From Chromatiaceae bacterium (GTDB taxonomy: Bacteria > Pseudomonadota > Gammaproteobacteria > Chromatiales > Chromatiaceae): a stretch of 44,502 bases of DNA. The position numbers were made by a program, and so were the translations under genes. Under the pieces are notes generated by a model. It was given only the letters and a program-made list of their open reading frames with translations, was not told the DNA's origin and searched no databases. Location of the stretch: assembly GCA_041307365.1 (NCBI GenBank), contig JBFZDM010000058.1, positions 1-44,502 of the forward strand. The letters are read 5' to 3'. Below, piece after piece: positions 1,634-44,455 of the stretch (position 1 is the stretch's first letter; each line of letters opens with the position of its first letter).

Positions 1634-2298
1634 CCAAACCATCGGATTCCGAGCGCAAACAGCAACAGCTACTCTCCACGCTCCTTGTCTTGGCCAAGGC
1701 CGGCGACCCGCGTGCCGACTGGCTGATCAACGCCCTCACCGAAGCCGGCTACCGCCAGGCCGGGCTCTATACCCAGCACGAGATCATGCGCGGCTTGGGT
1801 GTGACCCAACGCACGATCACGAACTGGTGCCGCGACGGCCTGCCCAGGGCGCGCGAGAGTAAGGGCCGGATCCCGGCGCTGTTCGACGTGTTCGCCGTCT
1901 GCCAGTGGCGGATCGAGCACATCGAAAGCAAGGTCCGCGCCAAGCTGGAAGACGACCCGCTGTTGGGCGGCGAGACCAGCCCGGCGCTCGAGAAGTACAG
2001 GCGGGAGAAGTGGCGGCAGGCCAAGCGCGAGAACGACGTGGCCGAGGGCCTGCTGATCTCGGTGGCCTACGTCTTGGAGTACATGCGCGTGATCGCAGGC
2101 GCGTTCCGGCAGCGGGCTGACATGGCCCAGAGAACATTCGGCCGGGAGGCCGGCCAGTTTATCGCGGAGACCATCAATGAAGCCGCAGCGGCGCTTGAGC
2201 GGCTCGCCGCGCGGCAAGAGAACGGCGAGCAGCCACCGAAGAAACGCGGACGCGGCAGACCGCGTAAGAGCCCTATCGACCGTCCGCCTGGGGGTTGA
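1630..2298 (+). CDS. terS: Terminase small subunit (HTH N-terminus, Nu1-like arrangement)
   Basis: Lies immediately upstream of and overlapping terL. Has HTH-like HEIMRGLGVTQRTITNWCRDG, a coiled-coil middle region and a basic tail. Confidence 0.6.
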   Translation: MTKPSDSERKQQQLLSTLLVLAKAGDPRADWLINALTEAGYRQAGLYTQHEIMRGLGVTQRTITNWCRDGLPRARESKGRIPALFDVFAVCQWRIEHIESKVRAKLEDDPLLGGETSPALEKYRREKWRQAKRENDVAEGLLISVAYVLEYMRVIAGAFRQRADMAQRTFGREAGQFIAETINEAAAALERLAARQENGEQPPKKRGRGRPRKSPIDRPPGG

Positions 2299-4231
2299 GC
2301 GGTTCAGGGTCCGCGTCCACCGGTCCTATCTGCAGTTCGCGGAGGAAGAGTTCGTGTTGCCGACCGGGCCGAGGGCTGGGTTCCGCTTCGCGGCTTCCTT
2401 CATGCCGTGGACAGGCTTGGTGTTGCGGGCGTTCGATGACGAGCGGTATCGACGGTTTTGGGGCAGCGGGCCAGCACAGAGCAGCAAGACGGTTCTATTT
2501 TTCTTGATCCCGATCCTCTACCATCTGTTCGAGGTGGCCGAGACTGTGATCGTCGGGACACCGCGCATGGAAGACGCCTATGCCATTTTCACTGACCGTC
2601 TGCTACCTGCCATCCGGGCCAACCCGGCATGGGCCGCTCTGCTACCGTCAGAGGGCGCTGGCAGCCGTGGCGGACGGTTCCATGCGATTCGGTTTCGCAA
2701 CGGGGCCATCCTCCGGTTCATGTCCGGGGCAGGCCGGGACGAAGAGCGCAGCTCGCACACGGCCCGCGTGGTTGTCTTGACGGAGGTGGACAAGTTTGAC
2801 GAGGCCGGCACGACCTCGCGCGAGGCAGACCCGATCAGCCAGATCGAGGCGCGTACCCGGGCGTTCGGCGGGCGGGCTCGGGTGTTCGCGGAATGTACCA
2901 TGTCCACGAAGGAAGGCCGCGTCTGGCGGGAGATCTCGGACCACGGTACCGACTCGCAACTGTGGCTTGCATGCCCGCACTGCGGGCGGTGGGCGGCGCC
3001 CGAGCGCGAGCAGTTCACCGGGTGGCAGGGTTGCGAGGATGTGAACGCCGCGCGCGACCACGGCGCCTATACCTGCGGCGAGTGTGGGGCGGCGTGGTCG
3101 GAGGCAGATCGACGCGCTGCGCTCGAGCGTCCGGTCATGGTCGCGGCAGGGCAGACGGTGACGGCGGGGCTGGTGACCGGAGAGCCGCGGCGCACCAACA
3201 CATTCGGGGTGCGGTGGAACTCGCTGCACTCGGCCATGACGGATCAGGCCGACATCGCCGAGGACGAATGGCGCGCCCAACAGCTCGACGATGAGGCCAG
3301 CAAGAAGCGCCTCGCCCAGTTCGTCTGGGGCTTGCCCTACGAGGCGGAGAAGGAACAGACGCTTGACATTACCGAGCAGACCATGTACCGGCGCATCACT
3401 GATCGCGCCCGCGGGATTGTCCCGGCCAATACCGAGAAGGTGACCGTCTTCGTGGACTTGGGCTTGTACCGCTGTTGGTGGTCTGCGTGGGCCTGGTCTG
3501 AAGGCATGCGGGGCCATTGCCTGGACTATGGATGCCTGTTGGTCGAGCATGGTGCCCGGTCGGAGGACGCCGCGATCCTAGCGGCCCTGCGCGAGTTCAG
3601 GGACGATATCCTGACCCCGGGCTGGGCCAACTCTGAGGGCGTGCGGCGCGGGGCGGATATGGTGCTCGTCGACCGCAACTGGAAGCCCGAGGTAGTGTCG
3701 GTGTTCTGCCGGGAAAGCGGCCCGGGCTACATGGGCGCGCATGGCCGCGGGGCGGTGCGCGGCCTCAAGTCGTGGACGGAGCCGAACCCGACCAAGGCCA
3801 AGCTGATCGGTGAGGGCTGGTATGTGACGCCGAGCTCGCGGGGCGGGTGCGTGGTCCTCATGGATGGCGATCGGTGGAAGGGCCGCGTACATGCTGGCTT
3901 CGTGGCGGCCGAGGGTGCGCCTGGATCGCTGACGCTCTACAAGGGCCAGCCGCGGGAACACAGCACGTTTTGCCGGCACATCCTCGCCGAGCACCAGATA
4001 GAGGAGTGGGAACCAGGGAAGGGGCCGATCGTGCGCTGGCACCAGAGCAGCCGCTCGAATCACTACCTCGATACCGCGTACGGGGCAATGGTCGCGGCGT
4101 CGATCTGCGGCATGCGGCTTGTGGTGCCGGCCAAGGTTCCGCGGCGACCGAAGCTCGGGGGCGGGTATCAACACCAGAATGGACCATACCAGAGATCCGC
4201 CGCGGGCGGCGGGTGGAGGATAGGACGGTGA
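2177..4231 (+). CDS. terL: Terminase large subunit, lambda gpA family
   Basis: Walker A-like GSGPAQSSKT; the gpA-like N-terminal segment FAEEEFVLPTGPRAG; a Zn ribbon CPHCGRW...CGECG. Start is uncertain: ATG 2177 has GGAG 7 nt upstream but overlaps terS by 122 nt, and GTG 2354 is the alternative. Confidence 0.9.
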   Translation: MKPQRRLSGSPRGKRTASSHRRNADAADRVRALSTVRLGVERFRVRVHRSYLQFAEEEFVLPTGPRAGFRFAASFMPWTGLVLRAFDDERYRRFWGSGPAQSSKTVLFFLIPILYHLFEVAETVIVGTPRMEDAYAIFTDRLLPAIRANPAWAALLPSEGAGSRGGRFHAIRFRNGAILRFMSGAGRDEERSSHTARVVVLTEVDKFDEAGTTSREADPISQIEARTRAFGGRARVFAECTMSTKEGRVWREISDHGTDSQLWLACPHCGRWAAPEREQFTGWQGCEDVNAARDHGAYTCGECGAAWSEADRRAALERPVMVAAGQTVTAGLVTGEPRRTNTFGVRWNSLHSAMTDQADIAEDEWRAQQLDDEASKKRLAQFVWGLPYEAEKEQTLDITEQTMYRRITDRARGIVPANTEKVTVFVDLGLYRCWWSAWAWSEGMRGHCLDYGCLLVEHGARSEDAAILAALREFRDDILTPGWANSEGVRRGADMVLVDRNWKPEVVSVFCRESGPGYMGAHGRGAVRGLKSWTEPNPTKAKLIGEGWYVTPSSRGGCVVLMDGDRWKGRVHAGFVAAEGAPGSLTLYKGQPREHSTFCRHILAEHQIEEWEPGKGPIVRWHQSSRSNHYLDTAYGAMVAASICGMRLVVPAKVPRRPKLGGGYQHQNGPYQRSAAGGGWRIGR

Positions 4232-4827: not shown

Positions 4828-5103
4828 TTGACTACCTCGGTAACCGAAGCCAATTTCCGCACGGCGTGCGGCGAAGTCTACGACGCGATCGCGTCGGAGT
4901 CCTGGGCCAGCGCCCACAAGTGGGCAGCCAAGGCCGAGGCCATGAACGCCGGCCTCGATCTCCAGCTCGCCGACGAACGCGCATCCAAGGCCCGGCGCGA
5001 GACGTTGCGCGGTCTGCGCGACGCCATCGACGCGGCAGAGAAGGCGGTGAGCAAGTACAGCAACACCGCCGGCCGATTCGTCACTACGCGGGTGCAATTT
5101 TGA
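4828..5103 (+). CDS. Hypothetical protein (occupies the head-completion, gpW-like position)
   Basis: 91-aa ORF with a TTG start and weak RBS. Sits between terL and the portal gene as lambda W does. Its stop overlaps the portal start. Confidence 0.4.
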   Translation: MTTSVTEANFRTACGEVYDAIASESWASAHKWAAKAEAMNAGLDLQLADERASKARRETLRGLRDAIDAAEKAVSKYSNTAGRFVTTRVQF

Positions 5104-6851
5104 GCTGGCCCACCAAGCTCGCCGACGGCGTGGTCGGCCTGTTTTCGCCGCGCCGTGCGGCGCTCCGCAAGGTCTGGCGTGATCCAGAGACTCAACGTAT
5201 TTACTCGGCCATGCTCCGCGCCCGTAGCTACCGCGCGGCGTCCAGCAGCCCGCAGAAGTGGCTCCAGAACGAGAGCGCCCCGGACTCTGACGCCAGCGAC
5301 TTGGCCGCCATGCGCAAGCGTTCCGCCGAGCTTGAGCGGGATGACTCGATCGCGTGCGGCCTGGTCAAGACGTTCACCGACAACGTCATCGGCAGCCGCG
5401 GCCTTGAGCCGCAGGTGCGGACGCAGGACCGCACCTTGAACGACGCGATTGAATCGGTCTGGCATGAGCGCGCCGGCCAGCTCCACCCGGTCGATCAGCT
5501 GACCTATGGCCAGGCCCAGCGCCTCAAGTTCCGACGCGCCCTGGTTGACGGCGACGTGCTAGTGGTAGCCAGCTCAGACCCGGGCGAGCCGATCTCCTTC
5601 GAGATCGTGGAAGCCCCGCGGATCCAGACGCCGGCCGGCAAGATCAACGACCCGAGTATTGTATCCGGTGTCGAGCGTGACGCCCGGAAGCGGCCTATCG
5701 CCTACCACGTCGGCGACTACGGCGGCGAGTATGGCGGCGGCGGCAAGCCAGTCCGCGTGGAAGCCGAGCGCGCCCACATGCTACGGCATGTCCTGCGTTC
5801 TGGCCAGAGTCGCGGCGTTAGCTACTTCCACGCCGTGCTACAGGACATCCGCGACCTTGACCTTCTGTTGGTCGCGTCGCTCAAGCGTACTCAGATTGCG
5901 GCATGTCTGGCCCTGTTCATCGAGTCGGAGCTGCCGATCACTGATCTCACCGAGGCCACCGAACAGACCTACGGGTACAAGCTCGACCAGGCCATCGAGC
6001 CCGGCATGATTTTCAAGCTCTTCCCCGGCGAGAAGGTTTCCTCGCTGCTCCCCAATTTCCCGGTGCCGGAGCTTGTCCCGTTCACCGTGGCCATTGCACG
6101 GCGGATCGGGGTGGCGCTTGGCGTGTCGTGGCAAACGTTGCTCAGGGACTTTAGCCAGTCCAACTATAGCTCCGCGCGCACAACCTTGCTCGACGATCGG
6201 CGCACCTTCCAGGCCCTACAGGAATGGTTTATCCCGCTGCTCGATTGGGAATGGGCGCAGGTCATGGCAGATGCCCGGCTGCGGGGTGATCCGCGGCTGG
6301 CCAATGTCGATGACGCTGCGATCCGGTCTGTGCGCTGGGTAGCGCAGGGGTGGCAGTGGGTCGATCCGCAGAAGGAAGCGCTAGCGATCCAGCTCGAGCT
6401 CCAGCTGGGCACCACGACCTTGCGCGATGTGTGTCAATCCATGGGCAAGGATTGGGAGCAGATCACAAGCCAGCGAGTGGAAGAGGCCGCGTTGCTGAAG
6501 CAGATGCGCCTTGAAGCCGGGCTCAAGCCGTCAGATATGCTGGGCTTTGCCGGTCAACGATTGACCGCGCGGGCGACCGTGGGCGAAGAGGTGCCGGAGC
6601 TGGAAATGGAAGAGGGCTGGGAACAAGTGCAGGACCGGCGCCAGACACGCGAGCAGCGATTCCGGCAGCAGCGCGACAAGCTCGGCCTGCCGCCCAGGTA
6701 CACGCTGGACGAATGGCGGTACGCGGTGACGACCCGTGGCCAGATCGAGGCTGAGGAAGAACTTAGCCCTGAGGAACCAGCAGACCCGGACGAGGCGGCC
6801 GATTTCGCCACGTCGGAGACAGACGACGAGGAACCCGCCAATGAAGACTGA
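5100..6851 (+). CDS. Portal protein, lambda gpB family
   Basis: GVSWQTLLRDFSQSNYSSARTTLLDDRR matches the lambda portal segment GVSYEQLSRNYAQMSYSTARAS. Also contains RKRSAELERDDSIACG. TTG start at 5100; acidic C-terminus. Confidence 0.9.
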   Translation: MSWPTKLADGVVGLFSPRRAALRKVWRDPETQRIYSAMLRARSYRAASSSPQKWLQNESAPDSDASDLAAMRKRSAELERDDSIACGLVKTFTDNVIGSRGLEPQVRTQDRTLNDAIESVWHERAGQLHPVDQLTYGQAQRLKFRRALVDGDVLVVASSDPGEPISFEIVEAPRIQTPAGKINDPSIVSGVERDARKRPIAYHVGDYGGEYGGGGKPVRVEAERAHMLRHVLRSGQSRGVSYFHAVLQDIRDLDLLLVASLKRTQIAACLALFIESELPITDLTEATEQTYGYKLDQAIEPGMIFKLFPGEKVSSLLPNFPVPELVPFTVAIARRIGVALGVSWQTLLRDFSQSNYSSARTTLLDDRRTFQALQEWFIPLLDWEWAQVMADARLRGDPRLANVDDAAIRSVRWVAQGWQWVDPQKEALAIQLELQLGTTTLRDVCQSMGKDWEQITSQRVEEAALLKQMRLEAGLKPSDMLGFAGQRLTARATVGEEVPELEMEEGWEQVQDRRQTREQRFRQQRDKLGLPPRYTLDEWRYAVTTRGQIEAEEELSPEEPADPDEAADFATSETDDEEPANED

Positions 6852-12960: not shown

Positions 12961-13561
12961 CGACAACACCGCGCACCCGGCATTTGTGGCCGCTCTCAAG
13001 GGAATGGTTGACCCAGGCGCCGCGCATACTTTTTTGGACTGCGGCGTAGGCGCCGGCTGGACGGCGGTACTGATCCGGCAGGCGTGCCCCGAGGCACGGA
13101 TCACAGGGCTTGAGATCTACGCGCCGTATGTCCTGGACACCGCCAAGCGGGCCGAGGTCGAGGCAGAGTGTGGTCTATACCATCATCTGTACGAGTCGAT
13201 GATCGTCGGCCGGTTGGGCGACTTCCGGGCGTTCCTGCCGGAGCAGGCCAGCGGGTCATTCGACTTCGTGGTGTTCGGGGACAGCTTGGAGCACGTCGCC
13301 CGGTCCGAGGGTGAGGAGGCGCTAGCCGCTGCGCAGGCCGTTGCCCGGCGGGCGGTCGTGGCCGTGGTCCCGTCAGTGCGGCGGATCGAGGGCCAAGACT
13401 ACGCGTTGACTCAGGGCACTGCATTCGGGAACCAGCACGAGGCACACCTGGCGCACTGGTGGCCGAAGCAGCTGGAGGCGCTTGGCGGGCGGGCGGCCGG
13501 CCATGGGCAGTTTGCGACCGTCTATGTGTGGGAGAATCAACGCGCGGTGGTCTACCGGTAG
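12950..13561 (+). CDS. Class I SAM-dependent methyltransferase
   Basis: Motif I LDCGVGAG, post-I ITGLEI and FDFVVFGDSLEHV. Confidence 0.75.
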   Translation: MPYSDNTAHPAFVAALKGMVDPGAAHTFLDCGVGAGWTAVLIRQACPEARITGLEIYAPYVLDTAKRAEVEAECGLYHHLYESMIVGRLGDFRAFLPEQASGSFDFVVFGDSLEHVARSEGEEALAAAQAVARRAVVAVVPSVRRIEGQDYALTQGTAFGNQHEAHLAHWWPKQLEALGGRAAGHGQFATVYVWENQRAVVYR

Positions 13562-13612
13562 GACGGGGGCTTCATGCGCCCCAGATAGCCGGTTCGATTC
13601 CGGCCCGCGCAA
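13541..13612 (+). tRNA. tRNA-Met (anticodon CAT); could also be an Ile2-type CAU tRNA
   Basis: Hand-folded cloverleaf: acceptor CGCGCGG/CCGCGCA (C1-A72 mismatch), D-arm GTCT-ACCGGTA-GGAC, anticodon arm GGGGC-TTCATGC-GCCCC, variable loop AGATA, T-arm GCCGG-TTCGATT-CCGGC. No CCA is encoded. Overlaps the last 21 nt of the methyltransferase CDS. Confidence 0.75.
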
Positions 13613-34043: not shown

Positions 34044-34556
34044 CTAGAATGGGCAGTCATCGGCCGGCGGCGCGCCGTCCTGGGTGGTGTCGATCTGTTG
34101 CTGCTTGGGGCGCGGCGGCAGCGGCTTCCTGAGCTCGCCGGTCTGCGCTGGCGTCTCGGCGGGCGCGGCCTGGATCAAGCCATTGACCCAGACGACCTGG
34201 TATTCCTTGCCTTTGGCGCTCTCGCGCAGCTCCACCTTGACCTCGATCTCGCGCCCTTCCAGGGCTAGGCGCTTCTCTTCCAGCTCGGCCATGGTCCTGG
34301 CCGCCACACCGCAGCGGCCAAGATCCTGGAAGAGATAGTGACGCTTGGCGCGGTCCAACGAGGACCACTTGAGCAGGATTTGGCGGGCGTACTCGCCGCC
34401 CTGGATCTCGAACGACCACCGCGCTTGCTCTTCTCCGAACGCCGGATGGTTGGCCGTGATCAGCTCGATCACGCGGACCGTGTACGTGCCCTCCGGCACG
34501 TCCGCGGAACGCCGCGGGTCGTATTCGTAGTCGTCGTTGTAGTCCCCGAAACTCAT
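34044..34556 (-). CDS. Putative ssDNA-binding protein with an SSB-like C-terminal tip
   Basis: Sits next to recT. N-terminus VPEGTYTVRVIE is DUF669-like. Has a Pro/Gln-rich linker and the terminal residues ADDCPF (compare the bacterial SSB tip DDDIPF). Confidence 0.45.
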   Translation of the reverse strand: MSFGDYNDDYEYDPRRSADVPEGTYTVRVIELITANHPAFGEEQARWSFEIQGGEYARQILLKWSSLDRAKRHYLFQDLGRCGVAARTMAELEEKRLALEGREIEVKVELRESAKGKEYQVVWVNGLIQAAPAETPAQTGELRKPLPPRPKQQQIDTTQDGAPPADDCPF

Positions 34557-34559
34557 ATG

Positions 34560-34865
34560 CTACTCCAATCTGATCACAAGGCGCGCCTTCAGCGCGCTGA
34601 TGTCGGACACGGCCTGATCGAGCGTCCAGCCGCCGTCTCGGGCATTCGCCGCGAGCGGTACGGCCAGGACGACCTCGCCGACCTCTTGGCCGGCGAACAA
34701 CTTGGTGGGCGCGGGCACCGCGCCAAGCGCCTCGATCAGGGCCTTGGTCGCGGGGTGGCCGATGTAGTGGGGTATTCCCGCGAGACTCGCGGGGAATGGG
34801 ATCGTACCGACGCGGTACGTCCCGTCCAGGGGCAGGACTGTCGTACTGAGGATCGCGACGATCAT
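34560..34865 (-). CDS. DUF1874 (STIV B116-like) family protein
   Basis: MIVAILSTTVLPLDGTY...HYIGHPATKALIEALG fits my recollection of the DUF1874 pattern. AGGAGGTG RBS. Confidence 0.45.
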   Translation of the reverse strand: MIVAILSTTVLPLDGTYRVGTIPFPASLAGIPHYIGHPATKALIEALGAVPAPTKLFAGQEVGEVVLAVPLAANARDGGWTLDQAVSDISALKARLVIRLE

Positions 34866-34906
34866 ATGCACCTCCTATGCGCCGGGAATGGCGCGGGGAT
34901 AAGGGT

Positions 34907-34934
34907 AGTATGACGGGGGATCGAACGGTGTCAA
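34907..34934 (-). promoter_or_regulatory. Sigma70-like promoter with a T-rich UP-like tract
   Basis: Minus strand reads TTTTTTTTC-TTGACA-n16-CATACT, about 35 nt upstream of the DUF1874 gene. It is an AT-rich island in a GC-rich genome. Confidence 0.5.
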
Positions 34935-34954
34935 GAAAAAAAGCGGGGAATTTT

Positions 34955-35110
34955 TCAGCGGCCTGCGGACATGACGAGCAAGAGCAAGGTACCCAGGATG
35001 GCATGGCCGAACACAGCGTCCAGCTGGATGAGGACAAGCAGCATGCCCAGCCACACGAGGCAGCCGAGACGGGTGGAGATGCGGCGCAGGTTGGGGTCGG
35101 GGTGGGGCAT
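34955..35110 (-). CDS. Small hydrophobic (two-TM-like) protein
   Basis: 51 aa, translated by hand: ...LGCLVWLGMLLVLIQLDAVFGHAILGTLLLLVM... The overlapping 82-aa ORF looks non-coding. Confidence 0.4.
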   Translation of the reverse strand: MPHPDPNLRRISTRLGCLVWLGMLLVLIQLDAVFGHAILGTLLLLVMSAGR

Positions 35111-35119
35111 GGTGGGGCC

Positions 35120-35710
35120 TCATTCAATGAAATCGAAGTGCTGTTGGTTTTGGTCGGAAGGTCGCTGTGGCGTCGGGAATACACGTCTCGGCGGCGGGTT
35201 CCCGTCGTGGCCCAGGATGACTTCCTCTGGCACCATGGGGCGTCGTGCCAGTGTTCGATCTGACATCCAGCGGAAGGCCCTGAACCGTGTTCCATCGCCG
35301 TTGTCTTGCTCGAAGCCGGCAACAGTACCGCTCTGCTTCCAGAGATCCCATACCCAGGTGCGGAACTTCGACAGATCGCAGATGACCCAATGCGCGAGCG
35401 CCCCGCCATCCTCTGATCTCAGGCCATAGAAGAAGAGATCGCCAAACCCCTCCATGACCTTCTTGAACTCGGTCTTCGTCCCGCTGTCTCTGCGGCTCCG
35501 CAGGGTAAATTCGCCCCAGTATTTCTTGTAACTTGGCCTTCTGATCCTGACCGCAATCCGAAGATCCTTGGCGATGATCAGTTTCAGATCCGTGGCCTTG
35601 AGCGCGTCATCCTCGAACGGTGCTTCGATCAGAAGATACTCGGCGAGGAGGCGCTTGACCTCCGGCATGTACCTGTCTGCCTCGATCTTGTCTCGTTCCC
35701 AGGCCATCAT
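35120..35710 (-). CDS. Hypothetical protein
   Basis: 196 aa with an ATGA overlap to the upstream methyltransferase stop. I recognise no family. Confidence 0.6.
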   Translation of the reverse strand: MMAWERDKIEADRYMPEVKRLLAEYLLIEAPFEDDALKATDLKLIIAKDLRIAVRIRRPSYKKYWGEFTLRSRRDSGTKTEFKKVMEGFGDLFFYGLRSEDGGALAHWVICDLSKFRTWVWDLWKQSGTVAGFEQDNGDGTRFRAFRWMSDRTLARRPMVPEEVILGHDGNPPPRRVFPTPQRPSDQNQQHFDFIE

Positions 35711-36870
35711 GATTCTTTCCCCCACACGTCGAAGTCCTCAATCGGGCGGCGGTTGAACATGTCGATCCGGCGCCCTGCGGTCACTCGGCGCAAGGTCTCG
35801 TAGAACGCTTCCGGCTTGGCGCTGTGCTCGGCACGCGGCGCCTGGAAACAGGTCGGAAACGCCTTCGTGTCGATGAATTGCGGCGTCCCGCGGCGGCCGT
35901 AAAGGCAAAACTCGCAGTTGTACTGTGGCAGGCCGAACGGCTGCGGCCCGCCTGGCTTGTGCCAGACGAAGGTCAAGACATACTTGACAGCCCAGGCCGC
36001 CAGGATCGAAAAAGCGTCTGGCAAGAAGCGCTGGGTAGTCCACAAGAAGACGTGGGCGTCAGGTGCCGCGGGGATCTTGATGGCCTCGATCTCGGCGAGG
36101 TCCATGGTCGGATAGTCGAGCTCGGCTTGCTGGTTCGGGCGGCAGTCACGCTCGATCTTCGCCATGGGCCATGGCGGATCAACCACAACCACGTCATAGA
36201 CGCCCACGGCTGCCTTGGCGGTCTTCGCCTCGATCGATTCGAGGCGCTGCACTACCTCGGCGCGCTTGGTCTCGCGGACGGCGGCAGCCAACGGCATTTC
36301 GCCCGATTGAACCCTGGCCGCGAGTTCGGGGGCGTTGCGCTTGAGGCTGATGGCCTGGCGGATCTTGCGCTCGGGCAGGTTTGAACTTTTGGCGGCAGTC
36401 GTAACTTTTGGCTCTGCCCGGGTTCGTTGTTTAGGTGCAAGCTCTGATCGCTTGCTGGACACGTCGTCCAGCAAGCGATCGGTGATCTGTTCTGGCGTCG
36501 CTTTACCGCCGGCTGCTCTTCCAGCCTTCGCCCGTTCCTGCTTTGCCCTCTCAATCTCGAGGTCCACCAGCGTCGCCTTGACCATGGCCCGCTGGTCATC
36601 GGTCAGGTTCCGGCGTTGCAGCTGGTTCTTGCTGACCCAGATCTTGGCGACCAGGCGATCCTGCAGGCTCAAGCGGGTCTCGCGGTACGGCTTTCCGAGC
36701 CGGTCGCAGATCCCGACTCGCTGGTGACCGTCAAGCAGGATGCCAGTCTCATCCCAGACGATGACAGGGTCACGACAGCCCTCGTCGGCGATGCTGGCCT
36801 CAAGCAAGGCCAGCTCGGCAGGTGTGGATAATGTGAGTAAGCTCTGGAATTCAGGGTCGATGGTGAACAT
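35707..36870 (-). CDS. ParB N-terminal domain fused to an MT-A70-family (N6-adenine type) DNA methyltransferase
   Basis: N-terminus ILLDGHQRVGIC (ParBc). C-terminus VVVDPPWPM (DPPW motif), LWTTQRF and SAKPEAFYE. Confidence 0.85.
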   Translation of the reverse strand: MFTIDPEFQSLLTLSTPAELALLEASIADEGCRDPVIVWDETGILLDGHQRVGICDRLGKPYRETRLSLQDRLVAKIWVSKNQLQRRNLTDDQRAMVKATLVDLEIERAKQERAKAGRAAGGKATPEQITDRLLDDVSSKRSELAPKQRTRAEPKVTTAAKSSNLPERKIRQAISLKRNAPELAARVQSGEMPLAAAVRETKRAEVVQRLESIEAKTAKAAVGVYDVVVVDPPWPMAKIERDCRPNQQAELDYPTMDLAEIEAIKIPAAPDAHVFLWTTQRFLPDAFSILAAWAVKYVLTFVWHKPGGPQPFGLPQYNCEFCLYGRRGTPQFIDTKAFPTCFQAPRAEHSAKPEAFYETLRRVTAGRRIDMFNRRPIEDFDVWGKES

Positions 36871-36952: not shown

Positions 36953-36980
36953 ATTCTACCCTACATGCCGTCCCCGTCAA
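36953..36980 (-). promoter_or_regulatory. Sigma70-like early leftward promoter
   Basis: Minus strand reads TTTTTC-TTGACG-n16-TAGAAT, about 85 nt upstream of the ATG at 36870. Confidence 0.5.
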
Positions 36981-36986
36981 GAAAAA

Positions 36987-37029
36987 CCCCGCCACGCCCC
37001 GGCTGCGGCCTGGGTGGCCGGGGGCGGTA
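36987..37029. other. GC-rich imperfect hairpin flanked by A5 and T-rich tracts
   Basis: CCCCGCCacgCCCCGGC-tgcggcctgggtg-GCCGGGGGCGG, with gaaaaa on the left and tattt on the right. Lies between divergent promoters. Confidence 0.45.
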
Positions 37030-37071
37030 TTTGATGGGTGTTTGCCAGAACCGTCAAACTCGAAAAAGCTA

Positions 37072-37101
37072 TTGACAGGGCACAACACCTCGTGGTATGG
37101 T
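37072..37101 (+). promoter_or_regulatory. Sigma70-like early rightward promoter (extended -10)
   Basis: TTGACA-n18-TATGGT, with TGg immediately upstream of the -10 element. Lies about 28 nt before ATG 37129. Confidence 0.5.
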
Positions 37102-37128: not shown

Positions 37129-37305
37129 ATGTACTCTGTCTCTCGCGTCGCTGCCCAGCTCGGCGTCACGGCGTCTGTCGTGCGCTACTGGATCCGGGCC
37201 GGCAAGGTCCGGGCCATTGCCACCCCCGGCGGCCACTACCGCATTCGCCAGGACGAGCTTGACCGGCTACTGTCGGCCGTCACGGCGGGAGGCGCCACAC
37301 AGTGA
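37129..37305 (+). CDS. MerR/excisionase-type HTH DNA-binding protein
   Basis: MYSVSRVAAQLGVTASVVRYWIRAGKVRAIATPGGHYRI fits the HTH_17 pattern. GGAGGA RBS. Confidence 0.65.
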   Translation: MYSVSRVAAQLGVTASVVRYWIRAGKVRAIATPGGHYRIRQDELDRLLSAVTAGGATQ

Positions 37306-38732
37306 TCGATCCTCATGCGTCCGCGCGCGTACTGCTCGGGTCGGTCCTACTGCGCCCGGAGCTCTATGCGCAACTCGAGGCCGTGCCGCCATACGCGTTT
37401 CCGGGCCGCCTGCGCCCGATCTATACCGCCATGGGGGAATGTTCCAGGGCGGGTGAAGATCCGGGCCTCATGGAGGTCAGGCGGCGCTTGAACGGGCATG
37501 CTGATGGGTTGGGCCTGCTTGATCTCTGTGAGGAGATCCGCGGCGAGGGCGTCAACGCTAAGCTGTTCGTGCGGCTGGTCGAAGACCTTGCCCCGATCGC
37601 GCGCCAAAACAAGGTACGCGAGATCCTGGACGCGGCGGCGTCCAAGGCACTTGGGCTGGACGGTCATGACCTCGAGCGGTTGGGGCGCGACACCGGCGAG
37701 CTTTTGCATGCGGCCATGGCAGACCGCGGCGGTTCCAACCTCGTGACACGATGTCTAGCCGACATCGAACCGCTGCCGACTGATTGGCTCTGGACCGACC
37801 GCATCCCACTCGGCATGCTGTCGCTGTTGGCGGGGCATCCCGGGCTCGGCAAGACCTGGCTGTGTCTGTACCTAGCCGCGTGCGTGTCGCGCGGCACCGA
37901 GCTCGCCGACGGATCGCCCTGCCCCATGGGGCGCGTGGTGATCCTGACGGCAGAGGACGATGCCGCCCGGACGATCCGGCCACGGATCGACAAGCTCGGC
38001 GGCGACCCATTCGCCATCACCGTGGTAGATGCCTATCGAGGCCAGGACGGCAAGGAACGCGCGCTGCACCTCGACACGGACGTCTCGGAGCTCGATCGGC
38101 TCTTGGGCCAGCTGGATAACGTCAAGCTGGTGTTCTTCGACCCGATATCGGCCTACCTCGGCAACGTGGACAGCCACAACAATGCGGACGTGCGCGGGGC
38201 GCTGGCGCCGGTCTCGGCGTTGGCGTCCAAGCATGGATGCGCGGTTGTGTTGGTCTCGCACCTGAACAAGGGCGGCAAGGATAGCAAGTCGGCTGTCCAC
38301 GAGCGGATCATGGGCAGCACGGCATTCGTAGCGGCCTGTCGGTCGGTGTACGGTGTCTGGCGCGACACCGCGAACCCTGCGGATCGGCTGTTTCTGCCAG
38401 TCAAGGTCAACATCGCCCGGGAAATGCTAGGTCTGATGTACCAGGTGGATTCGGACGGGATCCGCTGGTCTGCGGTACCGACCGAGCAGACCGCGGAACA
38501 AGCCTCGGCGGCCAACCCGGCGACAGAAGACGAGCGGTCGGCGTTGAAGGACGCGCAGGATTTCTTGCGCGACACCCTGCGGGCGGGGCCGATGTCGTCG
38601 AAGCAGGCGCTGAAAGAGGGCGCCGACGCCGGGATCTCGGCCCGGACGCTGAACCGCGCCAAGGTGGTGTTGGGCGTCCTGTCCCTGCGGGTGGATGGTC
38701 AATGGTCTTGGCAGCTCCCCATGCCCCTATGA
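37302..38732 (+). CDS. Replicative helicase-like protein: DnaB-N-like domain plus RecA-like (AAA_25/RepA-type) ATPase
   Basis: N-terminus ARVLLGSVLLRPELY, Walker A AGHPGLGKTW and Walker B-like KLVFFDPISAY. GTG start overlaps the upstream stop. Confidence 0.75.
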   Translation: MIDPHASARVLLGSVLLRPELYAQLEAVPPYAFPGRLRPIYTAMGECSRAGEDPGLMEVRRRLNGHADGLGLLDLCEEIRGEGVNAKLFVRLVEDLAPIARQNKVREILDAAASKALGLDGHDLERLGRDTGELLHAAMADRGGSNLVTRCLADIEPLPTDWLWTDRIPLGMLSLLAGHPGLGKTWLCLYLAACVSRGTELADGSPCPMGRVVILTAEDDAARTIRPRIDKLGGDPFAITVVDAYRGQDGKERALHLDTDVSELDRLLGQLDNVKLVFFDPISAYLGNVDSHNNADVRGALAPVSALASKHGCAVVLVSHLNKGGKDSKSAVHERIMGSTAFVAACRSVYGVWRDTANPADRLFLPVKVNIAREMLGLMYQVDSDGIRWSAVPTEQTAEQASAANPATEDERSALKDAQDFLRDTLRAGPMSSKQALKEGADAGISARTLNRAKVVLGVLSLRVDGQWSWQLPMPL

Positions 38733-38739
38733 TATGCAT

Positions 38740-39035
38740 CCCATCATACGCGCGCGCGCGCGCGTACCCTCCGGGGGATGCTTGGCAACCTTGGCAACCT
38801 TACCGTAAGATCCTTACTGCAGGCCAGGTTGCAAGATGGCCAAAGTAAGATGGCCATGGCCATCTTGGTGGTCACCTTGGACATCTTACATTGCGTGTCA
38901 ATTTGACATTGAAAGTAAGATTGCCAACTAGGTTGGCAACGTTGCCATTGGCAACCTTACACTAACTACATACTATATATATATATATAACAAGGTTGCC
39001 AAGCTTCCCGGGGGCATCGCGCGCGCGCGCGAGGG
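38740..39035. other. Candidate replication origin with (CG)n-capped inverted arms, iterons, a perfect palindrome and a (TA)n tract
   Basis: (CG)8 at 38749-38764 and (CG)7 at 39018-39031. The roughly 40-nt arms ending in GCTTGGCAACC are inverted. TTGGCAAC/GTTGCCAA and GTAAGAT motifs occur repeatedly. A 20-nt perfect palindrome lies at 38847-38866, and an AT tract ending in (TA)n at 38961-38990. Confidence 0.55.
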
Positions 39036-39183
39036 CAGATCATATTCCCCCCGCTCAATTCCTATTTGCGCCCGCCGGCCGACTCTGGTACCCTGGCAGG
39101 GATGCCCGGGTTGCGCTGGTCCATCACCCATTCAACGCAACCCTTCCCCGCGCGGCCCGGGCTCCTTACACGAGGGCTCTGCC

Positions 39184-39570
39184 ATGGCTCAGGCTGTCAA
39201 TCAAGTCATCCTGCTGAATGAGGTGGCGTCCACGACCACGGGCGCGGCTGTGGACGTGAGCAAGTATCAGTACGTCTCGGTCGCGATCGCTTCGATAGGC
39301 GGCACCGCGACTGTCAAATTCCGCGGCGCGGTAAAAAAGGACTCGGCCTGCACCGGGACGATCAGCGCAACCAACATGTGGGACTACGTCGGGTATATCG
39401 ACTGCCAGACGGTCACGGCCACGGCCGGGGATACGGGCGTGAGCCTCACCAATGGCGACTGCCGAAACCTCGTGATCTATACCGCCGGCCTCGACGCGAT
39501 CATGGGCGAGGTGACGGCCGTCGCGGGCGCCAAGGTCACCGCCTACGTCGTCTTCACTGACAACCGCTAA
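39184..39570 (+). CDS. Hypothetical beta-rich protein (first gene of the late rightward block)
   Basis: 128-aa ORF with a GAGGG RBS. Confidence 0.55.
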   Translation: MAQAVNQVILLNEVASTTTGAAVDVSKYQYVSVAIASIGGTATVKFRGAVKKDSACTGTISATNMWDYVGYIDCQTVTATAGDTGVSLTNGDCRNLVIYTAGLDAIMGEVTAVAGAKVTAYVVFTDNR

Positions 39571-39582
39571 CGAGGGCCCGCC

Positions 39583-40890
39583 ATGCTACCCATCCCCTAC
39601 TCGGATGCTCTCGCCCTCGCCCAAGCCCAGGCCGCTATCGCGGCCGTGAAGGCTCAGGCCAGCGGCCTAGCGAGCCTCGACGCGAACAGCCTCGTGGTCC
39701 AAAACCCCGCCAACGCCGTGGACACTGCCACGGCGAGCAAGATCGTCAAGCGCGACGCCTCGGGCGACATTGCCGTTCTGAGCACGGCCACCGCCGGGAA
39801 CAACGCCATCGGCAAGACCGAGGCCGGCAGCCTGGCAACAACCAACGCCGGCACCGTGTTCCAGGCCCGCACTGGCCTCTACTCGATCGGCACCGGCGGC
39901 GATTACGCTGACGTCGCGGCCATGATCGCTGCCGGCAAGTACCGCGGGCGGTTGGTGGCCAACGTCACAGAAGACAGCAACATCACGGTGGACGCCAACG
40001 GCCTGTACCTGGAGCTGGCCGGCTTCACGCTGACGATGGGCGCCTACCAGATTCACCAGAGCACGACTACCCGGATCGAGATCCACGGGCCAGGCGAGGT
40101 TGACTATACGGCTGTAAATGCAGGATATCCTTGGATTTACACGGACACGAAAGAAACCATAGTCATTGTTGATGGGTTCACGTTCGACAACAACAGTGGG
40201 GTCAAGGGGTCAGCGCTGGCCGAGTCGTCTGCCATCGTCACAGCATCCAACATGGTATTTGACGCCCCCAATGTTGTTGGCGAGGTAGATTACCCTACCG
40301 GTCTATATTTGGTGAATGGATGTGCAACCAATATAGAAATTGTCGGTGGGGGGTCAAACACTGCATATGTTATTTCCGCTTGGGGTGGGGTGATTAGCAA
40401 CATTCGGCATAAGGGGACATTCAGTACAACTGCCCCGACAGTGGCAGCGTATGGCGGGGTCATCAATGGGCTCGGAGGAAACGTAAGCATAGTGGCCTTG
40501 TCATACCTGAGCCCATTGTCGAACGCCAGAAATATAAGGTCTATTCTTGGCGCAAGCGAATCAGGGGTATACGCATTTTGCACTGTTGCATCATCTGTAA
40601 CATTGACAGGTGATTACAACGTCTTCGACAGCTGCATCTTTAACGCTTTGGTGACCGTCTCTTCCGGCGCCGTGCGCAACCATTTCACGAATTGCCAGTT
40701 CATCGCCGGCATCAGTATCAGTGACCAGACCATGCTGACGGCCTGCCGTGCCGGCGCCGCGGCCGGTAGCGGGGCGGCTACCATCACCGTAGCGGCTGGT
40801 ACCGGCACCGTGCTGACCGGCTGCCTCACTGACGCCGCGATCAGCGACGCGGGAACAGACACAGTCATCACCGGCTGCGCGGTGTACTAG
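39583..40890 (+). CDS. Tail fibre / tailspike-like protein
   Basis: N-terminus SGLASLDANSLVVQNPANAV is a fibre-type motif, and the body resembles repetitive beta-helix. GC is low over 40090-40640. Confidence 0.6.
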   Translation: MLPIPYSDALALAQAQAAIAAVKAQASGLASLDANSLVVQNPANAVDTATASKIVKRDASGDIAVLSTATAGNNAIGKTEAGSLATTNAGTVFQARTGLYSIGTGGDYADVAAMIAAGKYRGRLVANVTEDSNITVDANGLYLELAGFTLTMGAYQIHQSTTTRIEIHGPGEVDYTAVNAGYPWIYTDTKETIVIVDGFTFDNNSGVKGSALAESSAIVTASNMVFDAPNVVGEVDYPTGLYLVNGCATNIEIVGGGSNTAYVISAWGGVISNIRHKGTFSTTAPTVAAYGGVINGLGGNVSIVALSYLSPLSNARNIRSILGASESGVYAFCTVASSVTLTGDYNVFDSCIFNALVTVSSGAVRNHFTNCQFIAGISISDQTMLTACRAGAAAGSGAATITVAAGTGTVLTGCLTDAAISDAGTDTVITGCAVY

Positions 40891-40899
40891 GGGAATGAC

Positions 40900-42396
40900 A
40901 TGACAGCGTTGAACAAGAACCAGACTACCTACACCTCGGCCGGCATCACGGCGTCTACGACCCAGACGCAGGGTCAGCAGCCGTTGGCATACGGGATCAA
41001 CCAGATCTCCGTTTGCGCCAACGCCAACGATACGGTCACCCTGCCGGCGGCCGAGGCCGGGGCGTCGTGCCGGATCATCCATTCCGGGGCGCAGACCCTG
41101 CAGATCTTCCCGGCTTCGGGCGACAATTTGGGCGCTGGCGTCAACACCAGCACGACCCAGACAGCCGGATCAGACTCGGTCTGGGAGGCATACGACGGCA
41201 CGAACTGGCGCAAGATCCTTGGCGCGACAGGGGCGGCGGGAGCTGCTGGGGCTGCGGGAGCTGCGGGGGCCGATGGCACCGATGCCAGCGCCGTGATCAA
41301 CCTGGCCAAGCTCTTGAGCCTGCCCGGCCTGGCCGGCGGCTGGTCATCGGCCTCGTACGCGCACTGGTGGTCCACGAGCAACGCGACCGCCATCCTTGTC
41401 TTGCCGAATCAGGTCGATTTCACCATCGCGGACAGCGGCCCAGACGCGAGCCTAGACGCCATCTACTACGAAACAGACTCGAACACCCGGCGCTTCCGGG
41501 TCCAGCGGCGCAAGGTCTCGGCCGACGGGGCGCTGTCGCTGGTCTGTACGCAGATCGGCGGGGCCAGCTATCCGACCGTCGGGGCCACGCATACCCTGAC
41601 GAAAGTCTCGGGCACCGGTGACGCCACCATCGACTATTCGGCCGTCGCTACCTACGGCCCGCTGGCGCTGTCCACGACGGCGCCCATGCGCCTGAAGGTC
41701 ACGGCCACCAGCGACAACGGCTATGCTTACATGCGCCTGCTGCACGGCTGCGATCCAGTCTATGCGGGCGACACGGTCTCGGCTCGGGCCTATATGGCCG
41801 TCGCTGCGGCCGGGGATAGCGCGGCGCTTGGCCTCTACGACGGGGCCGGTACCCTAATCAACGCCGCCACCGCCATTACGGCCACGGCCTGGGCTCAGAG
41901 CACAACGGCCAGCGGCACGGCGGTCGGAGACTATACCGACCTGCGGATCACGCTCGCGGCGAGCGGGGATATCGTCTACATCGACATGCCGGAGGCCTGG
42001 GAAGGGGCTGTGGCGCCGACGGTGTACAGGGCGCGGGGGATCGGGCCGATGGTCAGTGTCGTTGGATGCCCAGCCATCGGGTGCGCTGAAGCGAATGAAA
42101 CACTGGTCAGCGTGGCCCCGTACTGCTCTCCCAATGCTGTGCTGATTCTTGCGAAAATACAAGTATATGAAACAAACACCACTAGCACATCGCATATGGG
42201 AATGCTGAACCCGTACACGAAGGTGTACGAGGACTATGCGAGCTGCGCCGGGAATGTGTATATATTCGCGTGTAATGAAACTCATGTGACCTCTGCGGGG
42301 GACGCAATGTATACTCTCTATGAGGCAGACTCGGATAATGACATCTTAGGGTATATGTATGCCAATGGTTATCGTTCATGGGAGGGCTCAGTATGA
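40900..42396 (+). CDS. Tail fibre protein with a short collagen-like segment
   Basis: Seven G-X-Y triplets (GATGAAGAAGAAGAAGADGTD) at nt 41221-41283. The C-terminal roughly 100 aa have low GC. Confidence 0.6.
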   Translation: MTALNKNQTTYTSAGITASTTQTQGQQPLAYGINQISVCANANDTVTLPAAEAGASCRIIHSGAQTLQIFPASGDNLGAGVNTSTTQTAGSDSVWEAYDGTNWRKILGATGAAGAAGAAGAAGADGTDASAVINLAKLLSLPGLAGGWSSASYAHWWSTSNATAILVLPNQVDFTIADSGPDASLDAIYYETDSNTRRFRVQRRKVSADGALSLVCTQIGGASYPTVGATHTLTKVSGTGDATIDYSAVATYGPLALSTTAPMRLKVTATSDNGYAYMRLLHGCDPVYAGDTVSARAYMAVAAAGDSAALGLYDGAGTLINAATAITATAWAQSTTASGTAVGDYTDLRITLAASGDIVYIDMPEAWEGAVAPTVYRARGIGPMVSVVGCPAIGCAEANETLVSVAPYCSPNAVLILAKIQVYETNTTSTSHMGMLNPYTKVYEDYASCAGNVYIFACNETHVTSAGDAMYTLYEADSDNDILGYMYANGYRSWEGSV

Positions 42397-44300: not shown

Positions 44301-44455
44301 CGTATGATAACCATACGCGCAAAGATAGTGGGCAGACAAGTGTATGTTTATCATACTCTGCCCAAAGGCTTGGCGTATGAGTGTCATACGCTGTAGTTGG
44401 TCAAAAACACCATGCGTATGACCAAAAAGTTGGCAAGTCGTATGAAAATCATACG
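44301..44455. promoter_or_regulatory. Right-end cluster of CGTATG(A)/(T)CATACG palindromic sites
   Basis: Sites are CGTATGataacCATACG at 44301-44317, tGTATGtttatCATAC at 44341-44356, CGTATGAgtgTCATACG at 44374-44390, a half-site at 44415-44421 and CGTATGAaaaTCATACG at 44439-44455. The 21-mer at 44438-44458 is identical to 23-43. Confidence 0.6.

Follow-up and report, generated by a model that had tools for sequence, protein, structure and literature searches.

The window analysed here, i.e., the whole 44,502-nt stretch of contig JBFZDM010000058.1 (assembly GCA_041307365.1, Chromatiaceae bacterium), represents the nearly complete genome of a phage that has not been cultured (44.5 kb, 64.5% G+C), and several independent assemblies hold essentially the same contig. 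The subject of this report is the 451-nt gap (38733-39183) that follows a helicase gene, and within it the block 38747-39031, a candidate replication origin. The gene upstream (37302-38732, plus strand) encodes a replicative helicase of 476 aa, which is DnaB-like and belongs to superfamily 4 (SF4) with a RecA fold (Pfam AAA_25, E = 9e-35). The block begins and ends with alternating CG tracts, referred to here as caps. The left cap, TA(CG)8TA (38747-38766), is a perfect 20-nt palindrome that starts 15 nt past the helicase stop codon, and its (CG)8 (38749-38764) is the most stable 16-mer of the window. The right cap, (CG)7, occupies 39018-39031 and is followed on the plus strand by a spacer or 5' leader (39032-39183), which precedes the first gene of a tail-fibre module (39184-39570). 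All matches to (CG)6 or longer in the window fall in the two cap tracts, with 0.15 expected.

Between the caps lie about 11 iterons with the consensus TTGGCAAYCTTRS and the skeleton TGGC-N3-CTT. The left outer pair, TTGGCAACCTTGGCAACCTTAC (38782-38803, plus strand), consists of two overlapping units that both point inward. The inner-left iterons span 38831-38889 (38831-38843 and 38845-38857 on the minus strand, 38857-38866 and 38877-38889 on the plus strand), and the inner-right iterons span 38915-38960 (38915-38927, minus; 38933-38945, plus, overlapping 38936-38948, minus; and 38948-38960, plus). The right outer iteron, TTGGCAACCTTGT (38990-39008, minus strand), points inward and is overlapped by a degenerate copy, so that the outermost iterons, beside the CG tracts, face inward on both sides. 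A 20-nt palindrome, AAGATGGCCATGGCCATCTT (38847-38866), is formed by two iterons placed back to back, and a 13-nt central palindrome, TGTCAATTTGACA (38896-38908), is the centre of a 51-bp imperfect palindrome (38877-38927), a segment with a single-stranded DNA (ssDNA) fold z-score of -3.7. All features listed by an earlier reading of the letters alone (the sequence-only reading) lie at the coordinates given there, and both palindromes were recovered by a repeat finder. The inverted arms, described earlier as roughly 40 nt long, were found by the same program as 41 nt with 78% complementarity (38753-38793 and 38991-39031).

The clustering of these motifs in the block is far beyond chance. Exact copies of TTGGCAAC number five in the window, all inside 38749-39031 (0.82 expected); at least six had been claimed, a count that is reached only by the 7-mer TTGGCAA/TTGCCAA, with 6 occurrences in the block when read by eye. 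The claim of at least four copies of GTAAGAT holds, since all four copies in the window lie within the same limits. Both short repeats are pieces of the one longer unit, TTGGCAAYCTTRS. With up to 3 mismatches, 11 of the 12 window matches to the 13-mer TTGGCAACCTTAC are in the block, in both orientations, as are 8 of the 14 exact matches to TGGCNNNCTT (TGGC-N3-CTT). No TTATCCACA-like DnaA box was noticed in the block in a look by eye.

The iterons at 38948 (plus) and 38990 (minus) flank a (TA)n tract, CATACTATATATATATATATAA (38969-38990); the layout is more complex than two simple sets. In a nearest-neighbour scan this tract was the least stable duplex of the window at 20, 30, 50, and 100 bp; at 20 bp its value is -15.0 kcal/mol vs. 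a mean of -30.1 (sd 2.7), i.e., 5.6 sd under the mean. It is the proposed DNA-unwinding element (DUE), as in the sequence-only reading; the tract also holds a conserved promoter-like site, described below, and is probably not a DUE only.

The block was compared with further contigs and with one informative relative. Three further contigs aligned over the block are identical to it except for one G/T difference in one of them (L002), and a fourth contig carries the same genome. In the relative, L004, the helicase is 78% identical at the amino acid level, the left cap is kept as CGCGCGTGCGCGCGCGCG, and the right cap is (CG)9. Since the CG tracts are identical in the further contigs and present with other lengths in L004, they are not assembly artefacts. 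Ten iterons occur in L004 at the same positions and in the same orientations as in the window; the equivalents of the left outer pair are at 1795 and 1814, and a tandem pair (2012 and 2021) stands at the place of the right outer iteron. The GTCAATTTGACATTGAA core of the central palindrome is 100% conserved, the TA tract is conserved, and by their coordinates the inner ends of the caps are 253 bp apart in each of the two genomes. The CCGGGGG part of the inverted arms is lost in L004, so the arms are real in the window but not conserved throughout, while their inward-facing outer iterons are kept. Identity with L004 is 83.5% over the right half of the block and 61% over the left half, where iteron positions and orientations are kept, compared with 59% at the third codon positions of the helicase gene and 41%, with 23 gap columns, in the 152-nt spacer beyond the right cap. 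Because the downstream gene is homologous in the window and L004, the spacer (39032-39183) is simply unconstrained. The sequence between the caps is thus under purifying selection, with the caps at its edges, and the block is a real, selected element.

Closer relatives are few. A helicase 88% identical was found in P0002 (ERZ22067504), where the gap after the gene is 463 nt. Scans with helicase peptides recovered no close relative in viral, genome, or metagenome collections, and tblastn against deposited phages and plasmids gave only relatives of <40% identity. The core DNA patterns gave chance matches only in the viral collection (low-GC contigs without TTGGCAA clusters or CG tracts) and nothing in the metagenome and genome collections, and blastn against deposited phages returned no DNA-level match to the window.

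In another explanation, direct/inverted (CG)n repeats would delimit a cassette that is mobile or can be exchanged by recombination, either slippage-prone or resembling a miniature inverted-repeat transposable element (MITE), with the caps as scars or recombination hotspots and not as functional elements. The arms are inverted repeats, homology with L004 stops exactly at the right cap, and ATCATA stands beside both caps in the window. A further contig, L114 (ENA ERZ27245627 k141_951158), begins 15 nt before a single (CG)7 that is directly abutted by CGTATGACCCCATACG; its right flank is clearly related to the L004 spacer (an estimated ~85-90% identity), and its left 15 nt differ from the inner end of the block. 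These 15 nt match the left flank of the block no better than shuffled sequence does, so L114 was not upheld as a natural deletion of the block. No further copy of the element was seen in the window or in any collection scanned, and ATCATA is lost on the right side in L004; a MITE or other small mobile element was rejected on these two grounds, the single copy and the unconserved candidate duplication. Cap-to-cap spacing and iteron positions are, moreover, conserved between lineages, and distal (CG)n tracts occur at similar positions in unrelated lineages. We regard the cassette explanation as improbable.

The helicase itself provides the next line of evidence. The helical N-terminal domain covers aa 4-141 and the RecA core aa 162-389, and a winged helix forms the C-terminus. 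The core matches RepA of RSF1010 (1g8y, E = 9e-6), and the N-terminus weakly matches the N-domain of the DnaB-like protein 3bgw (E = 0.027). For the AlphaFold2 (AF2) model, with a mean confidence score (pLDDT) of 82, the top 50 Foldseek matches were all DnaB-type (bacterial DnaB, Bacillus subtilis DnaC, and the phage DnaB-like 3bgw), with E-values down to 9e-16 over ~450 columns against full-length DnaB. The protein thus has the two-tier DnaB-type (SF4) architecture, and its Walker A motif GLGKT is conserved. The last ~70 residues are extra, and are modelled as helix-helix-helix-hairpin with a core pLDDT >90. This predicted winged helix (aa 410-471, encoded at 38529-38714, plus strand) is the proposed iteron reader; when it was searched in isolation, all 50 Foldseek matches listed were winged-helix or related small DNA- or protein-binding domains. 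Of the 120 best homologues, 118 have this domain, with R452 invariant in its third helix, whereas the N-termini of the homologues vary, many of them carrying Toprim or Prim-Pol primase domains and not the DnaB-like domain.

The sequence-only reading had found no obvious dedicated initiator and had pointed to a 58-aa helix-turn-helix (HTH) protein (37129-37305, plus strand) as the nearest candidate. This protein is HTH_17/MerR-like, of the AlpA/excisionase type (Pfam HTH_17, E = 1e-9), and its gene is the first of the rightward early operon, ahead of the helicase gene. It is called at the same length in L001-L003 and L026, and an AlpA homologue lies upstream of the helicase gene in L027. The helicase, with its conserved C-terminal winged helix, is the better candidate: judging from the layout, which is that of the self-loading helicase origins of Staphylococcus aureus pathogenicity islands (SaPIs) as well as phage-inducible chromosomal islands (PICIs), the initiator is likely the helicase, and the 58-aa protein is possibly a regulator and not the favoured initiator.

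A link between helicase and iterons was also found in distant relatives. The distant set comprised 117 loci from two collections, 79 from bacterial genomes or metagenome-assembled genomes (MAGs) and 38 viral, and in it the TGGC-N3-CTT skeleton peaks just past the end of the winged-helix coding region. In the 79 genome/MAG loci, whose helicases are 37-45% identical, its density is 5.0-5.5 per kb in the 100 nt on each side of the open reading frame (ORF) stop, 1.5-2.4 per kb over the 100 nt beyond these, and ~0.1-0.6 per kb elsewhere in the same loci; the 38 viral loci, an independent set, gave 3.4 per kb in the 200 nt past the winged-helix end. Different repeats stand at this place in other loci, and in 20 of 80 loci the downstream 8-mer with the most copies exceeded every control window. 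The skeleton often occurs as two opposed sets around an AT-rich patch. The clearest layout is that of L146, with four TGGCACCCTT units, a 40-nt AT-rich stretch, and then inverted AAGAGTGCCA/AAGGGTGCCA units; L081 reads AAGGTTGCCAAGATTGCCAAGTTTGCCA ... TGGCAATCTTGGCAACCTT, in L132 (66% G+C) TTGGCAACCT units are interleaved with TATATATA, and L103 and L062 have a layout similar to these three. Opposed sets around an AT-rich core are also present in L081, L099, L162, L047, L033/L029, and L132, and (TA)n or AT-rich patches lie between the iteron sets in L122, L130, L132, L133, L141, and L146. The triplet (N3) of the iteron varies within single loci. In the viral contigs L122 and L130 (2747-2780), CTACTTGCTCAC iterons surround (TA)11(TG)5 after the helicase relative, likely another instance in which a purely alternating tract is the unwinding element.

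The genes downstream of the array differ, with a methylase in L027, an HATPase in L029, and fibre genes in the window, and in L110 neither helicase nor iterons precede the fibre-gene homologue; the array therefore travels with the helicase. The 156-nt gap upstream of that fibre-module homologue (L110, 1300-1455) holds two copies of GGCAAATGATTAAACTTAATCTAGATG and is a different control element at the corresponding place. Many of the relatives sit in integrase-AlpA-helicase islands. Among plasmids, pCG2 of Corynebacterium glutamicum (L167, NC_004534.1) encodes a 622-aa AAA ATPase that is related to the helicase, winged-helix region included, and the 465-nt gap after its gene (2338-2802) is full of ATGTATGTAAGTGG repeats in both orientations. 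Taking pCG2 as proof of a helicase-type plasmid replicase did not hold, since the plasmid is classed with the rolling-circle pBL1 family (PMC4379921) and this protein may not be its replicase.

Taken together, we assign a probability of about 0.68 to the reading that 38747-39031 is a phage replication origin of the self-loading helicase type, read by the winged helix of the helicase itself. The gene just upstream would supply a DnaB-like hexameric helicase with an extra C-terminal winged helix, which would bind the ~11 iterons in both orientations, the outermost facing inward. Helicase assemblies gathered on the iterons would melt the (TA)n tract and then load on the single strands. Host primase may be recruited by the N-terminal DnaB-like domain, a step that is proposed because no primase gene was found in the window. 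RNA polymerase at the promoter in the TA tract may aid opening or priming, and probably also starts late transcription. The two (CG)n tracts bound the constrained block. The analysis shows the anatomy of the sequence, its conservation, the predicted folds, and the association of this helicase type with 3' iterons across the family, whereas binding, melting, loading, priming, and any part played by the caps are inferred. The core of the sequence-only reading, an origin of iterons and an AT-rich DUE beside a helicase gene, thus remains the best-supported explanation, given the purifying selection on the block, the family-wide iterons 3' of the helicase gene, and the TA tract as the sequence easiest to melt, while three of its points are revised.

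Several observations weigh against an origin of this kind. At least three exact TGGC-N3-CTT matches were found in only ~18 of the 117 distant loci, and the remaining loci have different repeats or none detected. The GC skew follows gene orientation and marks no origin in the window. With the winged helix in isolation, Foldseek gave weak E-values (0.03-0.25). The contig L114 may be a relative without the inter-cap block, through a cap-to-cap deletion, or one with a diverged inner end. The block also sits between the early genes and the tail-fibre, lysis, and late genes, where a late promoter is expected and a promoter-like site is present. AAA_25 proteins had no described function as of 2022 (PMC8965321), and no mapped origin for the group with AAA_25 plus winged helix was found in the literature.

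The promoter-like site is the basis of the main rival, in which the region serves transcriptional control only: a late promoter and an operator array for a phage regulator (e.g., the 58-aa HTH protein), with CG RNA hairpins ending the early transcripts and structuring the late leader, and no origin. The site, sigma-70-like TTGGCA-N17-TACTAT (38948-38976, plus strand), faces the tail-fibre and late genes; its -35 hexamer TTGGCA is part of the iteron at 38948, and TACTAT lies in the TA tract. The equivalent in L004 is TTGGCA-N17-TATAAT (11/12), accompanied by a mirror-image site on the minus strand. Genes from 39184 on look like tail fibres and are followed by small lysis-like genes and then packaging and head genes, which is why a late promoter is expected in the gap, and in L141 and L133 the (CG)n tract stands 30-50 nt ahead of the next start codon. 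However, the same iteron skeleton is found 3' of the helicase gene in distant elements with unrelated downstream genes, it is absent upstream of the L110 fibre-gene homologue, and the iterons occur at one genome locus only. Neither CG hairpin is followed by a U-tract, no intrinsic terminator was predicted on the plus strand, and promoters are common within origins and compatible with origin function. Transcriptional control without an origin is thus unlikely, though the least unlikely of the rivals. Within an origin, the TA tract with its promoter would likely have a dual role in unwinding and late transcription, and RNA polymerase bound at the unwinding element could act in late transcription, in activation of the origin, or in both. 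Two other promoter assignments were rejected by eye: a sigma-54 reading of TGGCA...GC has the wrong spacing, and the central TGTCAATTTGACA has no -10 at 16-18 nt on either strand to act as a sigma-70 promoter.

A structured non-coding RNA would account for the dense palindromes, the promoter-like sites on both strands, and the strongly negative fold z-scores of sub-segments. No Rfam family was found (the best, Qrr, reached 22 bits vs. a gathering score of 50, E = 0.26), and conservation tracks short DNA-symmetric repeats in both orientations, not the helix pattern of a single strand; of the rivals we consider this one the least probable.

The origin proposed here can be compared with several known systems. 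SaPI/PICI origins consist of 6-12 short iterons directly 3' of rep, in two sets around an AT-rich region, with at least two iterons per side in opposite directions, and the C-terminal winged helix of Rep binds them without a separate loader (PMC9371898; PMC6092414). Likewise, the element in the window lies directly 3' of the helicase gene, 15 nt past its stop, a position held in the distant relatives; opposed iterons flank an AT-rich region, of which L146 is the simple form; the window helicase has a predicted, conserved C-terminal winged helix; and Gram-negative PICIs have an AlpA/HTH gene upstream, as in the window. The differences are also clear. SaPI Reps are AAA+ proteins (pre-sensor II insert clade), whereas the window helicase is RecA-fold, DnaB-like AAA_25, so the likeness is architectural and functional, not by descent. 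The window element belongs to a complete phage and not to a satellite, its iterons are longer (10-13 nt) and more numerous, and the SaPI/PICI layout as summarised in those two sources is without (CG)n caps or a pure (TA)n DUE.

RSF1010 (IncQ oriV) likewise has an iteron origin, and among solved structures its RepA (1g8y) is nearest in sequence to the helicase core. Its helicase unwinds outward and exposes the hairpin-forming ssiA and ssiB on complementary strands for priming (PMC8567376), which is an earlier example of an origin whose symmetric elements form hairpins. RSF1010 differs in having a separate initiator, RepC, and a dedicated primase, RepB' (the window showed no gene resembling RepC or RepB'), in that ssiA and ssiB are complex 40-nt signals and not simple (CG)n, and in that RepA is without the N-terminal DnaB-like domain and the winged helix. 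In phage lambda, the origin shares the arrangement of iterons beside an AT-rich unwinding region; there, the O-protein iterons adjoin this region and nearby transcription activates the origin. However, the lambda initiator gene contains the origin within its own sequence, its product is not a helicase, and P delivers host DnaB. The alpha protein of satellite phage P4 and ORF904 of the archaeal plasmid pRN1 combine helicase and C-terminal winged-helix/origin-binding functions in one polypeptide, as would the window helicase. For P4 alpha, the cis-acting ori/crr is located downstream of or near its gene (PMC6092414). Both proteins are superfamily 3 (SF3) helicases fused to a primase, whereas the window helicase has a DnaB-like N-terminus in which no primase domain was detected, and the iteron sequences are unrelated to those of the window. 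For ORF904, 166 bp downstream of the gene are reported to be essential (PMC4234260).

The caps are the least conventional part of the block. They had been described as without recognised precedent in phage origins, and this stands for the symmetric pair, which occurs only in the lineage of the window and in L004, the left cap being lineage-specific. It does not stand for the right cap, since several distant lineages also have a single distal (CG)5-7 tract beyond an AT-rich patch. Ten (CG/GC)n tracts of at least 5 units were counted in 502 kb of 132 relative loci, and four of them lie 170-310 nt past the winged-helix end, where ~0.8 would be expected (p ~0.005, rough binomial). Tracts comparable to the right cap are those of L141, L133, L109, and L124; in L141 and L133, the order is iterons, AT-rich patch with (TA)4, last iteron, (CG)5-6, and next gene, as in the right half of the window block. 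As ssDNA hairpins, the left and right caps have predicted energies of -10.2 and -9.7 kcal/mol. Candidate roles include thermodynamic clamps that would confine melting, Z-DNA that would buffer supercoiling, and hairpins on the unwound strands that would serve as priming or R-loop anchor sites. As a tentative and rather doubtful extension of the origin reading, the (CG)n tracts may be working parts of a widespread, uncharacterised origin class, in which a winged-helix DnaB-like helicase would load itself at 3' TGGC-N3-CTT iterons and a distal (CG)n, doubled in this lineage, would form a structural switch beside the unwinding element. Such a switch might be a B-to-Z transition, hairpin extrusion on the unwound strands, or the anchoring of an R-loop from the TA-tract promoter, and it would set the limits of melting or give a leading-strand priming site in a primase-less phage. 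A telRL-like protelomerase target, which would have a large palindrome centred on a TACGCGCGTA-like sequence beside a protelomerase gene, was also considered and rejected: TA(CG)8TA is palindromic, but neither the genes called over 25708-44511 nor the neighbouring ORFs that were scanned gave a protelomerase or tyrosine recombinase hit, and L004 does not keep the palindrome intact.

Partition (centromere-like) or packaging recognition sites typically have arrays of repeats in both orientations too, and the window encodes two ParB_N-like domains. However, gene calling over 25708-44511 gave 38 genes, neither a ParA nor an integrase gene among them, and a better candidate for such a site exists at the contig ends, so this role for the block is very unlikely. 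There, seven palindromes (C)GTATGA-N3-TCATAC(G), with 0.5 expected by chance, are distributed over 44302-44454 and 25-118, spanning both ends of the contig, which overlap by 12 nt (CCCCCGCTCGCT). The array adjoins a ParB_N-like gene (142-801) and the gene of a weakly Nu1-like HTH protein (1630-2298), possibly a small terminase. The array probably serves packaging (cos/pac) or ParB binding, and among other places for an origin it is the main candidate. An AT-rich patch at 940-1200 (G+C ~0.40-0.47), flanked by the ParB_N-like gene and the putative small-terminase gene, ranks second in the genome for low duplex stability; the ORF that contains it (737-1633) does not show the codon-position G+C of a gene. 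A motif resembling the terminal palindromes, TATGA-N11-TCATAC, is present in the left flank of the left cap (38723-38753), where the half-site TCATACG abuts the cap, and a link between the binder of the terminal palindromes and the caps is possible.

Experimental evidence for a single module of helicase, initiator, and adjacent iteron origin comes mainly from SaPI/PICI satellites, P4, and pRN1, whose helicases are all AAA+ or SF3, and the same design now appears, from sequence comparison, in the RecA-fold DnaB-like AAA_25 family, a family found very often in prophages, genomic islands, and phages across many phyla. The block is most likely a variant of the self-loading helicase origin, with unusual CG-repeat boundaries, in a family without a characterised origin. 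It would be a case of convergent evolution of self-loading helicases, the shared TGGC-N3-CTT skeleton would give a simple rule for origin prediction in thousands of unannotated mobile elements, and the module would offer vectors for high-GC hosts a compact rep-ori unit. With the caps, the genome's most stable and least stable duplexes come to lie ~30 bp apart, which makes the block a natural system in which to ask whether Z-DNA- or hairpin-prone tracts contribute to the opening or priming of an origin.

As for the rest of the genome, no integrase, ParA, polymerase, or primase gene was found among the genes of the window. The packaging and head module includes the large terminase (2177-4231), the portal (4866-6851), and protease and capsid genes, and a tRNA-Met (CAT) gene (13541-13612) lies inside the structural module. 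The leftward early block encodes a RecE-like exonuclease, RecT, SSB, and an MT-A70 adenine methyltransferase (35707-36870, minus strand), the N-terminus of which also matches ParB-like and methyltransferase PHROG families. A 450-aa ORF (34057-35409) considered as a missing replication gene was rejected, as gene callers divide the stretch into four smaller genes. Divergent early promoters are found in 36953-37101, with TTGACG-N16-TAGAAT on the minus strand and TTGACA-N18-TATGGT with an extended TG on the plus strand, the latter conserved in L004. An inverted repeat GTCAA-N14-TTGAC overlaps the -35 of the plus-strand promoter. Its half-sites are common to the central palindrome TGTCAATTTGACA of the origin block, and for this reason one regulator might bind both. 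In the fibre genes within 39583-42396, two proteins gave no Pfam, PHROG, or PDB sequence match: one of 435 aa, which looks like a beta-helix fibre or spike, and one of 498 aa with the collagen-like repeat GAAGAAGAAG / GAAGAAGAAGAAGADG. The G+C content falls to ~0.49-0.52 at 40050-40650, and 200-nt windows of 0.46-0.48 start at 42121-42201, drops that suggest recently exchanged receptor-binding modules.

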